A DNA stretch of 37,803 bases from Octopus sinensis (GCF_006345805.1 NW_021835888.1:1-37803), one strand, 5' to 3'. Positions 3,389 to 31,529 are shown, numbered from the stretch's first letter. The notes: generated from the sequence alone by a model not told the origin. Numbers and translations are program-made.

Positions 3389-3700
3389 AAAGTTAATCCA
3401 AACAAGAAAGCACGAAAAAACACAACAACGCGAGGACGTGGAACAAATATAGTATTATTGGACGCTCAGGAAAAAAGGAAAGAAGGCGGGTTTAACGTCT
3501 CGAGCAGAGCTCTTCGTCGGAAACATAGGAGAAGGAAAGATCCAGAGAAGGGAAGACAGAAGAAAAAAAATCGCCAACGAGATCACATTTTGAAAGACCG
3601 GAAGGAAAAGGGTGAAGAAAGATGTTTTCAAAGACAGAAGAGTAGTATTGTCAAAGACAGCAGAATGGTAGAGGGGGAAGATGTGTGTAAGTGTGGATAT
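3389..3700 (-). mobile_element. Non-coding PLE/retrozyme-like repeat fragment carrying a degenerate hammerhead
   Basis: Lies between microsatellites and contains the hammerhead fold at 3490-3524. Its minus-strand segment gttccacgtcctcg resembles gttccacgtactcg at about 5253-5266. Confidence 0.5.
3490..3524 (-). ncRNA. Minimal type I hammerhead ribozyme fold, degenerate (GAGA instead of GAAA)
   Basis: Minus strand: guuu CCGACGA a gagc ucu gcuc GAGA cg U U aaac. Stem I is guuu/aaac, stem II is gagc/gcuc, and stem III is the palindrome ACGU. Confidence 0.6.
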
Positions 3701-3850
3701 GTGCGTGCGCGGAGGTCTGCGTGTGCGTGTGTGTGTATGTGTGCAATGATGACACGTGTATGTGTGTGTGTGTGTGTGTGTGGTTGTGGCTATATGTATG
3801 TATGTATGTATGTATGTATGTATGTATGTATGTATGTATGTATATGCATA

Positions 3851-4135
3851 TATGGGTACAGGACGTCAAAAAACGTAAACAACAGGAAATACGAAAACAA
3901 TATGAAATACGAAGACAAACTTTTGTATGCAAACAACGAGAGAAACAAATGAAAGCGAAGAAAAGATAATATAAAGAGCGACCCTTCATCAGTTGTCGGC
4001 TGTTCATCTACTTCACATTTCGTGCAATTCACAACAATATGAACCTTTGTAAAAACAGTTGCTCCCGCGAACCAAAATAAACTTTGGGATTTGCAGAGGA
4101 TCAAAGTTGGTGGCAAAAACAGAAGAGTAGAGACA
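3851..4135 (-). mobile_element. Interspersed repeat, diverged inverted copy of about 5040-5316
   Basis: Shares gcgggagcaactgtttt, tattgttgt, acaactgatgaag.gtcg.tctttat and the terminal gacgtcctgtaccca with the copy at 5040-5316, in opposite orientation. Confidence 0.75.
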
Positions 4136-4500
4136 TGCAACAAACCAAACACACACACACATAGAAGAATATTTGTAAAAAGAGACCTTTACTATTTTCT
4201 AAAGCTGATAGCCCAGTTTTGCTTCATCTTAACTGGAAATTTGCATTCAATGACGCTTCAATATTCTAAGGGCCATAACTCCTTTCAGATTTTTAAAATA
4301 CTATTTAAGGGAAGTAACTTATATTAAATTTTCTTTTTCTTTTTTTGTTTGTCTATTACTGCAATGTAGTATGAAGCTTCCAGCGAACTAAACAACGCGG
4401 TTTCGGTTCACGTTATGTATTCGGTACATTTCCTGTACGTTGATAATACTGTTCGGACAGGTTCACTCCCACCTTGCAAGTTCTCCTACTTTATACAACC

Positions 4501-4645
4501 TATTTCTTTACTACCCACAAGGGGCCAAACACAGAGAGGACAAACAAGGACAGACAAACGGATCAAGTCGATTACATCGACCCCAGTGCGTAACTAGTAC
4601 GTAATTTATCGACCCCGAAAGGATGAAAGGCAAAGTCGACCTCGT
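4501..4645 (-). mobile_element. SINE family B (Meta-domain-like core), 5'-truncated, with 15-bp TSD
   Basis: Reverse complement of gtcgactttgcctttcatcctttcggggtcgataaa...aaagaaata. Perfect TSD ctactttatacaacc at 4486-4500 and 4646-4660. Confidence 0.9.
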
Positions 4646-4828
4646 CTACTTTATACAACCGCCATTATAACATCATCGCCATGGCACTTAATATCACGTA
4701 ACATCGCTATAACTTCGCTTACTTTCCCTTTCATCACTTAAAACACTTTTTTCCAATTGATACTGCTTCGTAATCCAACCATGTTAATAATCATACATGA
4801 AGAAGGCAAATTAAATTCGGTTTATGCA

Positions 4829-5316
4829 TATGTGGGCACAGGACGTCACTCTCTGTCCCTCACTCCGCTTCCTTTTCTCACGTGGCTCCCACGTGGCCAT
4901 CGGCTATCTTTCTTCTCGTAATTTGTGCTTCTTTCTCTCCGTTGTAGCTGGAACAAAAAAGACGTGTTGTTGTTTGTCTACGCTTTCACCACCACAACCT
5001 CGTTTAGGTTTAGCAGCTCTTCCTCTTTGTTTTCACAGTCCTGTTTGTGTTATCAATTTTGACCCTCCGCAAAATCCCAAATTTTATTTAATTTATTTTG
5101 CGGGAGCAACTGTTTTATCGAAAGCGTATATTGTTGTTAATTTCTCGAAATACGAGAGTAGAAAAACAACCAACAACTGATGAAGAGTCGTTCTTTATGT
5201 TGATTGTTTTGTTTTCCATTTGTGTCTTTCGTTGTTCGAAAGAATAGTTCATGTTCCACGTACTCGTGCTTCATATTTTTTGTTGTACTCGTTTCGTGAC
5301 GTCCTGTACCCACATA
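4829..5316. mobile_element. About 490-bp non-coding element with 21-bp terminal inverted repeats
   Basis: tatgtgggcacaggacgtcac (4829-4849) is the reverse complement of gtgacgtcctgtacccacata (5296-5316) with one mismatch. Followed by a TA array. Confidence 0.7.
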
Positions 5317-5594
5317 AGTATATATACATATATATATATACGTATAGATGTAAATGTGTACATATACGTATGTATATATGCATATATATATATGTATATA
5401 TAATATATATAATATACATATACATATATATATATATATATATATATATATATATAATATATATATATATTATTTATATTATTATATGATTGAACGCCAC
5501 GCATCCTCTCCCAAGTAAAGTTTATCTTAATGATATTATTTTATATCATATATATATCTATATCTATCTATCTATATATATATATATATATATA

Positions 5595-28890: not shown

Positions 28891-29489
28891 GGGACTTCGA
28901 AGGTGAACCAAAGCACATCTGAATAAAAAAAAATACCAAAAAATAACAATATACACAAAAGTACATAAATAAATGCATTCAACATTGGGTGGGTCTCTTA
29001 GACAGATTAGAATACCAAGAAAATACCACCCAGCGAGTCAAAAAGGAGTATCTACGCGCTGGAAATAGTAGCTAAATCTCCCTCGAATTATATCTGATAG
29101 GGAGGATACATTGTATAAAAGTAGGAAATACCGTTGAACAAATTTATTCATTCATTCAGAGTAAGGCTTGGATCAAACTTCAGCTAAAAAGCAAAAGCAA
29201 TATTGGTCACGCGGTCCGTATTTTGGCAAATCGGAAAACATTTCAGGAGTAATTCCAGGATTTTTTTCAAGAGTAACAATTTAATGGCGTCATCATCATC
29301 ATCATCATCATCATCATCATCATCAGTAGCAGCAGCATCCTCATTATCACCACCACCACCACTATCTCCATCATCATCATCATCAACATAAAATTACTTT
29401 GTAAGCAAAAGCAAAAGAAAAAAAAGGGAAAAAAAAAGCCAACAGCGTTTCCTTGGTTGATTTCTGTTCACATGAGAAAGTTCTTGCAT

Positions 29490-30200
29490 CTTTTATCCTT
29501 TACTTGTTTCAGTCATCAGACTGCGACCATGCTGGGGCACCGCCTTCAAGAATTTTAATCGAACTCAATGACCCCAGTACTTCTTATATCTTTGTAAAGC
29601 CTGGTACTCATTCTATCGGTATCTTTTGCGGGGGCCGCTAAGTTACAAGGATGCAAACACACCAACACCGGTTGATGGTGATTGGGGACAAACACACACA
29701 CACACACACACATGCACATATATACATATTTATACACATACCACCGTGATCACCGTGACCGACCAGGCTATCAGATGTTGCTAAACATCGCTGCTCACAA
29801 TGCGCTTCGCATTGTTTTAGCCTCCAAATGACGCCACCCCGTTGGCTAAGCGAGCAGGCCAACAGAAGAAAGAGTGAGAGAAAGTTGTGGTGAAAGAGTA
29901 CAGCAGGGATCGCCACCACCCCCTGCCGGAGCCTCGTGGGGCTTTAGGTGTTTTCGCTCAACAAACACTCATAACGCCCGTTCTGGGAATCGAAACCACG
30001 ATCCTACAACCGCGAGTCCACTGCCCTAACCACTGGGCGATTGCGCTTCCATTTATATACATATGGACGGGTTTATTTCAGTTTCCACGTGTCAAATCCA
30101 CTCAAAAGGCTTTGGTCAGCCTGAGGCCACAGTAGAAGATAGTTGCCCAAGGTGCGAGACACTGGGAAGCGAACCTTTTACCACACAGCCATACTTGCGC
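29490..30200 (-). mobile_element. SINE family A interrupted by a family C SINE
   Basis: Tail tttacttgtttcagtcat...ccatgctggggcaccgcc at 29498-29545; head gacgggtttatttcagtttcc...ccacacagcca at 30066-30191. Confidence 0.8.
29741..30050 (-). mobile_element. SINE family C (tail W) with 13-bp TSD
   Basis: Reverse complement of 19762-20066. TSD atttata(c/t)acata at 29728-29740 and 30051-30063. Confidence 0.9.
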
Positions 30201-30841
30201 TTATAAGTTGAAGAAACTACTTTGGAGCTTCTTTTCTGTAAAGGCTTCCCTTAGCTAGATAATTTTTCTAAGCTTGTCTGTTACGTTTGTATTCGTGCAG
30301 CTGTTCACGAGAAAGGATAAATTAAACCCGTTTTTTATGGTCTTTCCTCAATACTGTATAACATCATAAACAAACACAAACAATACACTTATCTATGTTA
30401 ACGTGCATAAATATTATATATAAATAAGGTTTACAAACAATGAATATAGAATAGAAACCAAAACGCCCAATGATAAATATTCCAGTTCCTTCCAGGAATC
30501 TCTGCTTAAAAATAACGAGAAAAAGGAAAGAGAGAGAGGGCTCGCTGGAAGGCTTACTGCTTTAGTAAAGGTGATAGGAAGGCTTCGCAAAAGTAGGGTT
30601 TAGATTAGAATTTTAGAAATGTCCATCACACTGCAAAAGAAATTGGATGTCTTCCAATATATTCTCCTTAAGTTAATCAGGAATATGGTATTCAGAAGGA
30701 GAACCAATAAATATTCTGCATAACTAAACTCTGATACCAAACCTATAAATTCTTTAAGAAATACGTCCGTATTTGGTGACAAAGTAAAATGAAAATCTTT
30801 ATATAAGGTAAGCAAACATAGACAACTTCTTACAATATAAC

Positions 30842-30913
30842 GCATCTATACATGTGATAGCTAGAATTATACGCAGTTTGGCGTATAATTCTAGCTATCA
30901 AATGCATAGATGC
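30842..30913. other. Near-perfect hairpin (33-bp stem, 6-nt loop)
   Basis: tgatagctagaattatacgc agtttg gcgtataattctagctatca is a perfect 20-bp stem, extended by gcatctatacat/atgcatagatgc. Confidence 0.85.
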
Positions 30914-31069
30914 ATGCAAACATGCTTGTGTTTGTTCGTAAGTGTGTGCACATGTAATATGTGTATATGTGTATGTATGTATGTATGTATGTATGTATGT
31001 ATGTATATATATATATATATATGTATGTGTGTGTGTGTGTGTGTGTGTGTGTGTGTGTGTGTGTGTGTA

Positions 31070-31222
31070 AAGGCACATGGCCTAGTGGTTAGAGCAGCAG
31101 ACTTGCGGTCGAGGGATCGCGGGTTCGAATCTCAGACCGGGCGATGTGTCTGTTTATGAGCGAAACACCTCAGGTCCACGCGGCTCTGGCAGAAGTTAAT
31201 GGCGAACTTCTGCTGACTCTTT
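31070..31222 (+). mobile_element. SINE family C-related head fragment
   Basis: tggcctagtggttagagcagc...gggttcgaatctcagaccgggcg...gagcgaaacacct...tccacgcggctctggcag. Confidence 0.8.
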
Positions 31223-31278
31223 CGACGTTTATATATTTGTTTTACAAGATTCTTGATGTGAAATCGCGTGTTGACACA

Positions 31279-31529
31279 GTTGTTGTTGTATTTAGGAATG
31301 GTCATTTTGCCAGTTTAGCCAATAGTAAGGAAAGACACACAAACAAGAAAGAAGAAAGCAAAAGACCACTGATGAGGTCACAGAAGTGTGACAAAAGAAC
31401 TCTGACCGAAATAAGATTAAGCTTCAGGTAAAAATAAATAAAGCTGAAGCAAATTAACGCCAAATATATAGTACGTGTGTTTTTATTGGCTAAACTGGCA
31501 ACATGACCATTCCTAAATACAACAACAAC
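31279..31529. mobile_element. 251-bp element with 46-bp terminal inverted repeats enclosing a hammerhead core
   Basis: 31279-31324 vs 31484-31529 with one mismatch; right end abuts (CA)n. Confidence 0.85.
31364..31429 (+). ncRNA. Degenerate type I hammerhead fold
   Basis: gacca CUGAUGA gguca [22 nt] ugacc GAAA uaagauuaagcu U C aggu. Core and stem II are perfect; stems I and III are imperfect. Confidence 0.5.

Follow-up and report, generated by a model that had tools for sequence, protein, structure and literature searches.

A split, permuted form of the hammerhead ribozyme predicted in Penelope-like elements of Octopus sinensis

The present study concerns a 37.8-kb contig of the Octopus sinensis genome (NW_021835888.1, positions 1-37803; genome of 2.72 Gb), which as a whole constitutes the window analysed here. 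We regard it as quite likely that the window is a microsatellite-rich nest of truncated ends of Penelope-like elements (PLEs) with six type I hammerhead ribozymes and three rearranged ones, the latter probably folding to the normal core from scrambled parts, and that these rearranged motifs, judging from sequence, would cut their own RNA. The membership of the motifs in families, the link of three elements (E1, E2 and E6) to open reading frames (ORFs), the tandem, inverted and tailed structure of the insertions and the base-pairing pattern are established. The split permuted class is new, and so is a core swap fixed in one type I family, E5. On balance we also favour a wider reading, in which the Naiads, PLEs of ctenophores, cnidarians, nematodes, spiders and cephalopods, would carry self-cleaving hammerheads in a contiguous type CSG form and in a split form (A9-G10.1 link open, stem II supplied from upstream), present here as thousands of copies in at least four families whose insertions would record cleavage in vivo. 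In that case, the statement that Naiads lack hammerheads would be overturned and ribozymes would be near-universal in PLEs, while non-circularly permuted hammerheads, so far seldom seen, would turn out to be present in animal genomes in high copy number. Such a topology would also break the assumed unit of CUGANGA plus stem II; standard descriptors and Rfam miss it.

Three copies of the split hammerhead, missed earlier, lie in the window with their cores at 5177 (+), 3992 (-) and 35228 (+). The first belongs to a PLE-like non-coding element, E7a (4826-5318, + strand), in which CUGAUGA at 5177-5183 has no GAAA after it; in the E7 family the GAAA is found 30 nt upstream and the U-H cleavage site 17 nt further upstream. 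In E7a the 5' strand of stem II (5104-5108) is followed by the I/II interaction helix (5110-5116), stem III (5125-5129), the predicted cut (5130/5131), a stem I strand (5131-5136), the 3' strand of stem II (5142-5146), GAAA (5147-5150) and the stem I partner (5171-5176), with one mismatch in stem II. E7b (3849-4125, - strand) is a diverged copy with one mismatch each in stems II and III; its upstream stem II strand falls within 4056-4066, the cleavage block at 4032-4043, the GAAA block at 4014-4026 and the core block at 3986-3998. The third copy, E9 (35189-35330, + strand), represents a second family and is 5'-truncated, its first base lying about 6 nt to the 3' side of the expected cleavage point, with the GAAA block at 35195-35207 and the core block at 35222-35234. 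At least four sequence-distinct families share this form, with 3,775 exact hits in the genome for E9, 1,048 for E7, 392 for E8 and 217 for a Naiad type whose motif was taken from the published cephalopod Naiad consensus; control hits were 0 for all four patterns. E8, E9 and the Naiad type were recovered by a descriptor run over all fetched loci, as was a small group, E10, which also has the split form.

The blocks succeed one another as cleavage block, GAAA block and CUGANGA, and the partner of stem II stands 35-43 nt before GAAA and not behind the core. The strand before GAAA finds there a perfect partner of 5-6 bp (GAGCA/UGCUC, GAAGG/CCUUC, GGCUG/CAGCC and GACACC/GGUGUC), and the strand 3' of this partner pairs with the segment before stem I. 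In the proposed fold, the RNA would begin with the 5' strand of stem II and the I/II interaction strand, pass through one strand each of stem III (with the UH site) and of stem I, and then through a short linker, and would return through the 3' strand of stem II with GAAA and stem III, the interaction segment, stem I with CUGANGA, and a G-rich strand. The backbone link A9-G10.1 would be open, at a place where PLE hammerheads already tolerate one extra base, and the G-rich strand after the core would probably close a weak extra helix with upstream sequence. On a circle the blocks follow each other as C-S-G, which places the form in one class with types CSG and SGC. Reading E7 as type II or as type GCS was rejected, as the helices do not close, while the upstream S block fits.

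Pairing data support this arrangement. Selection on stems I and III only, in S-G-C spacing, gave 116 distinct motifs, truncated copies among them; the strand before GAAA forms at least four Watson-Crick pairs with an upstream strand in 91 of these, and with the strand after the core in 1. The same descriptor gave 2 hits when applied to 400 kb of sequence, and 25 shuffles of that sequence gave 0. Copies ordered by position, and not picked by fold, reached far enough upstream in 31 of 39 cases for E7, 29 of 40 for E8 and 25 of 49 for E9. In them, the upstream stem II gave 120 Watson-Crick and 3 G-U pairs in 124 cells for E9, 133 and 3 in 143 for E8, and 120 and 8 in 155 for E7, and the fourth helix, joining stems I and II, gave 143 and 12 in 181 cells for E7, 130 and 6 in 145 for E8, and 152 and 6 in 173 for E9. 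All four helices are 83-99% paired, and double changes occur inside families, in stem I, stem III and the I/II interaction helix. In this sense, stem III of E7 is CGUAU/AUACG, CACAU/AUGUG or CUCAU/AUGAG according to subfamily, and stem I changes in step. U16.1, GAAA and CUGANGA were invariant in 18 of 18 alignment rows. Finally, in 17 copies of E7, E8 and E10, 91% of 357 cells pair and 16 of the 21 pairs change on both sides, a pairing level reached by 0 of 500 shuffles and compared with 32-43% in slid controls; for this set, six E9 and Naiad-type rows were dropped (their stem II was misregistered in the cross-family alignment) and five E7/E8 rows were added. Since the alignment rows, in both sets, were chosen by a descriptor requiring stems I and III, and are mutually related, the figure of 16/21 is support and not a probability.

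Taken as a fold, the split hammerhead is well supported, and cleavage by it is predicted. Several observations nevertheless weigh against our interpretation. The row selection just mentioned is one, and each of the three copies in the window shows damage or truncation. Some of the double changes fall in CpG sites, and the extra helix, judged by eye, is rich in G-U pairs. No ORF was found upstream of E7, E8 or E9 in flanks of 1.5-7 kb, nor at two of 30 Naiad-type loci that were extended by 3 kb. For E9, contigs from four RNA runs of guessed kind contained no informative joints or ends. As to cleavage, a lizard PLE was able to insert in vitro without it, and none of the reads had its end at the site (PMC11167929).

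The fold itself could be read in another way. The blocks stand in S, G, C order with stems I and III, as in type SGC, and a contiguous type SGC ribozyme could be active through the G-rich strand after CUGANGA as its stem II, with the upstream strand acting as an inhibitory competitor that keeps the ribozyme off. Support comes from E7, E8 and E10, where the G-rich strand pairs with the same partner over 4 bp in 96% of 68 cells, about half as G-U, so that this fold may form in those families, which counts against ours; one extra base after A9, moreover, is known from PLE hammerheads (PMC4209133). However, slid controls for the G-rich strand still pair in 49-69% of cells, and in E9 the strand directly after the core gives 24 Watson-Crick pairs and 75 mismatches in 99 cells, while the upstream strand fits all families. 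Among the Naiad motifs, those of the jellyfish, the hydrozoan, the ctenophore and the squid do not admit the contiguous pairing by eye either. Besides, the place of the I/II interaction helix is after the upstream strand, just as in type CSG it comes after stem II. We therefore consider the contiguous alternative quite unlikely. A different objection accepts the fold but denies that it cuts: it may be kept for binding of the reverse transcriptase (RT) or for RNA stability, and any accumulation of copy 5' ends near the site may come from stalling of the RT. This is unlikely in our opinion, even though minimal PLE hammerheads cleave poorly in vitro (PMC4209133), the lizard element inserts without cleavage, and a break at A9-G10.1 falls outside the block rule of PMC10085705. 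Against it, the catalytic core letters and the U-H site are all kept across families whose helices are fully replaced, and, of the copy 5' ends, many fall upstream of the final helix strand to be unwound by the RT, with few beyond the cut.

The split hammerhead as a cutting ribozyme would make sense of where copies begin. In samples picked by core and downstream letters only (n=129 copies), 30 have their start in the interval 0-20 nt on the 3' side of the predicted cut, whereas the 21 nt preceding the cut contain 6 starts, and 4 lie further 3' (Fisher p 4e-4 for the excess). A rerun with longer windows placed 28 starts in the 0-20 nt bin and 2-11 in the other 21-nt bins, and 47 copies reached beyond 190 nt. 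Copying of the 3' cleavage product would give such a pile-up. On the other hand, the peak covers 20 nt instead of marking the cut exactly, and it could also be made by RT stalling or by TA microhomology. For most copies of the split families the template was clearly uncut RNA, as it was for the lizard element, and cleavage would provide some of the templates with their 5' end. If our reading holds, the excess of starts just past the predicted cut constitutes a direct handle on what PLE ribozymes do.

Non-circularly permuted hammerheads have been described as types SGC and CSG (Eckert et al., 2023; PMC10085705). The split form shares with them the circular block order, the crossing helices, a short linker leading from stem I to stem II and, on the other sides of these stems, a fourth helix that connects them. 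That study assumes CUGANGA contiguous with stem II, whereas in the split form the stem II strand comes from upstream of GAAA. It reports 583 type SGC and 2 type CSG examples from metatranscriptome, metagenome and RefSeq data, in contrast with the thousands of animal retroelement copies found here, and its passages on these types make no link to PLEs. A term search of Forgia 2023 did not find a passage on extra helices. Rfam listed 41 matches at five loci with the split motif, none of them to a hammerhead family. A general six-permutation descriptor at a loose score gave 8 hits in 400 kb, against 4.6 in shuffles.

Copies of E7, E8 and E9 sit at TA repeats, with same-strand pairs about 760-1,035 bp apart, and their units of 0.8-0.9 kb occur in tandem and with inverted 5' copies, which are hallmarks of PLEs. 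We infer that these three families are non-autonomous PLE derivatives; the RT and endonuclease of an autonomous partner, probably of Naiad type, would copy their RNAs into TA repeats. The PLE traits described in PMC8557442 include inverted 5' copies, one-sided tails and TA targets, and the tail of a PLE reflects two RT start sites (PMC11167929). Like E7-E9, Naiads show TA targeting and inverted and tandem insertions. Craig et al. (2021; PMC8557442) described the Naiads as without a canonical hammerhead and flagged 17 consensus sequences as having cores or half cores ('HHR_core'/'HHR_half_core'); the cores are given there, in the parts concerned, without a fold, and the helix sequences of E7, E8 and E9 differ from those of the Naiads. 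We inspected by eye the last 520-600 nt of 23 of the 54 consensus records, taking their identity from the order of the metadata sheet. Eleven of the 23 ends appear permuted, five as clean type CSG with the fourth helix present (four nematode families and one spider) and six in split form (two octopus, squid with a stem II mismatch, box jellyfish, hydrozoan, and ctenophore with a 2-bp stem I); the cephalopod, jellyfish, hydrozoan and ctenophore ends thus show the same architecture as our families. The other 12 were unresolved or had no core in view. Among the flagged records viewed, 10 of 16 resolved, and the ostracod ends did not yield a fold by eye. A prior link between Naiads and permuted hammerheads was not found in a literature search that left outside most subscription journals and the supplement of Eckert et al.

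Two 3' ends, which we take to be those of Naiad-1_Movir and Naiad-4_Chem, share a motif resembling a permuted twister ribozyme, and some Naiads may use twister instead of hammerhead.

The ordinary motifs had been presented, in a preliminary description of the window, as six type I hammerheads in unrelated, microsatellite-associated mini-elements. All six stretches are present, and we name their families E1-E6 by window order. E1 (3389-3792, - strand, upstream boundary by eye) is the 5'-truncated 3' end of an ORF-bearing PLE; its minimal hammerhead (3490-3524) has U4C, an extra A before stem II, a palindromic stem III and, in the window copy, A14G. E2 (5598-5990, + strand) combines inverted and direct pseudo-long terminal repeat (pseudo-LTR) pieces of a 4.27-kb RT/GIY-YIG element, joined near 5745-5753, with an intact hammerhead (5788-5832) that has a U10.1-U11.1 mismatch, and with a one-sided element tail of 28 bp. 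E3 (8308-8612, + strand) is the 5'-truncated end of a longer element, and its hammerhead (8308-8431) is intact with a long loop II. E4 (8768-9168, - strand) is a retrozyme-like unit of 351 bp with an inverted 5' piece from 9113; stem II of its hammerhead (8937-8979) is broken in the window copy. E5 (22853-23106, + strand) consists of an inverted piece (22853-22903) and a unit of about 200 bp with a one-sided tail, and its intact hammerhead (22922-22972) has an extra G before stem II. E6 (31226-31527, + strand) joins an inverted tail piece to the 5'-truncated end of an ORF-bearing PLE, and its hammerhead (31364-31407 by the family span, G12A in the window copy) has GAAA after a 5-bp stem II.

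The case for these motifs rests on families, because single copies are weak evidence: a strict palindromic type I descriptor allowing at most one deviation recovered 1 of the 6 flagged sites, and hammerhead families were absent among the 150 of 210 Rfam matches listed for the window. Every flagged site belongs to a multicopy dispersed family, with first-look candidates numbering 2848 for E1, 1528 for E2, 2775 for E3, 2755 for E4, 448 for E5 and 2485 for E6. In best-hit samples the ribozyme was intact in 16/30 copies of E1, 18/21 of E2, 24/28 of E3, 13/30 of E4, 22/30 of E5 and 11/30 of E6, compared with three of the six window copies (E2, E3 and E5); exact-pattern searches gave 742 hits for E2 and 0 in the control. 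The family folds, all in C-G-S order with a short stem III, agree with those proposed earlier at 3490, 5788, 8307, 8937 and 22922, while the fold proposed at 31364-31429 was misfolded, as the family ribozyme ends at 31407. Stem III is indeed palindromic in five families, and near-palindromic in E6. The flanks proved mutually unrelated, as had been said (best cross-family BLAST E 0.05), and the picture of several parallel families of PLE-type minimal hammerheads inserted at TA-type microsatellites stands.

Their size and autonomy were another matter. E2 is the pseudo-LTR of an element found in tandem at four loci (period 4.26-4.27 kb), whose ORF matches RVT_1 (E 2.7e-6) and, C-terminally, GIY-YIG (E 2.3e-5) in Pfam. 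E1 runs upstream through a long CA-rich region into an ORF that matches that of E2 (E 8e-29), with weak Pfam matches (E 0.19 and 0.15), and E6 continues at two loci into a PLE-like ORF that has no Pfam hit and matches the C-terminus of the E2 ORF weakly (E about 1e-5 to 1e-4). E1, E2 and E6 are therefore ends of ORF-bearing PLEs and not mini-elements. E3 copies have about 0.9-1 kb of upstream sequence in common; for E3, E4 and E5, upstream flanks of 1.5-7 kb yielded no ORF attached to the element. The short copies of E1, E2, E3 and E6 are 5' truncations, often with an inverted second copy; inverted 5' copies are present in E2, E4, E5, E6, E7 and E8, and tails of 28-55 bp in E2, E4, E5 and E6. 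It is very unlikely, then, that all six are independent non-autonomous mini-retroelements of 200-450 bp yielding circular RNAs at roughly one per 6 kb. In favour of that idea are E4, the only short tandem unit with one hammerhead per unit (351-bp period at two loci, head-to-tail copies, terminal direct repeats, inverted 5' pieces), E5, where 24 of 30 position-ordered copies have nothing beyond an AG just upstream of the ribozyme, and the retrozymes known in molluscs (PMC7229834). The idea is refuted for E1, E2 and E6 by their ORFs, 19 of 30 position-ordered E2 copies extending into the long element, and the density does not hold either: 400 kb of position-picked stretches elsewhere held 3 copies of E1 and 1 of E7, the only families counted, so that one per 6 kb is a local nest. 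Cutting of host pre-mRNAs by these motifs, also put forward earlier, is unsupported. Short tandem repeats mask about 17% of the window, and by one regex measure microsatellites make up 8.3% of it, while 40 stretches of 10 kb picked by position average 3.3%.

Reading E2, E5 and E6 as miniature inverted-repeat transposable elements was ruled out, given that the junctions vary, the tail is one-sided and copies run into longer elements. Fixed palindromes in E2 and E5 were an artefact of best-hit sampling; in position-ordered samples, 14 of 30 E5 copies have an inverted piece attached. In palindromic E2 copies (L002-L030) the same subfamily variants are usually found in both arms, and where a copy is asymmetric, the inverted arm has retained its outer end. 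This pattern fits priming of two cDNAs on a single template, followed by head-to-head joining. At L271:941-4574 lies a near-intact PLE with pseudo-LTRs 99-100% identical and its ORF in two frames, which suggests recent activity of the E2 family.

As a whole, E1-E6 are known biology, and the idea is already in PMC4209133 (Cervera and de la Pena, 2014) and bioRxiv 10.64898/2026.07.22.740005. Like E1-E6, the PLE pseudo-LTR hammerheads of the former have a short palindromic stem III and, in several, one base added between 9 and 10.1. In both, families are numerous per genome, most copies stand alone and are truncated, and pairs occur on opposite strands; E3 differs from the published hammerheads in a loop II of 75-80 nt. 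E4 resembles the animal non-LTR retrozymes (PMC7229834; bioRxiv 10.64898/2026.07.22.740005) in its short head-to-tail unit with one type I hammerhead and PLE derivation, whereas the E7-E9 units differ from retrozymes in their greater length and permuted ribozyme; the bioRxiv study searched with type I models only. A PLE origin of animal retrozymes was proposed in PMC7229834 and argued in the bioRxiv study. In our model, the type I motifs of E1-E6 would cut tandem transcripts, probably as dimers.

The exception to what is known is the core of E5. With positions 3, 7 and 8 left free, the E5 pattern gave 4,516 hits and 0 control hits; G3:C8 was present in 91 of the first 100 listed hits and C3:G8 in none of these. 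The core swap reported in nature is U3:A8 (PMC4209133; PMC3088659), whereas the E5 family fixes G3:C8. An engineered G3:C8 double mutant partly restores cleavage in a PLE hammerhead (PMC11167929), and the E5 family constitutes its natural counterpart. No paper on a natural G3:C8 family was found in a literature search whose reach did not include Lunse et al. 2017. Two loci, L227 and L275, have upstream of the E5 ribozyme, on the opposite strand, a PLE-like ORF that shares about 43% identity with the E6 ORF and may be an autonomous partner of E5.

Sequences resembling a branch point, pyrimidine tract and AG occur just 5' of the ribozyme in E5 (L214, L231, L232, L238), E2 (L240-L268) and E8 (L446-L475). 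The AG sits at G10.1 in E8, and many short copies of E5 and E2 start at or beside the look-alike, which recalls the Penelope intron end at helix I. Splicing that would join A9 to G10.1 was considered and rejected, because a conserved donor is absent after the core in spite of the acceptor-like AG before G10.1 in E8. The window also contains two further dispersed repeats. A tandem unit of 184 bp, present in 2.5 copies at 19140-19601, is a very common one, with further copies at 4498-4644, 15248-15476 and 16606-16819. The second family, found at 19763-20069, 25138-25330, 29746-30051 and 31077-31223 with copies 76-92% alike, gives the impression of being a tRNA-derived short interspersed nuclear element.

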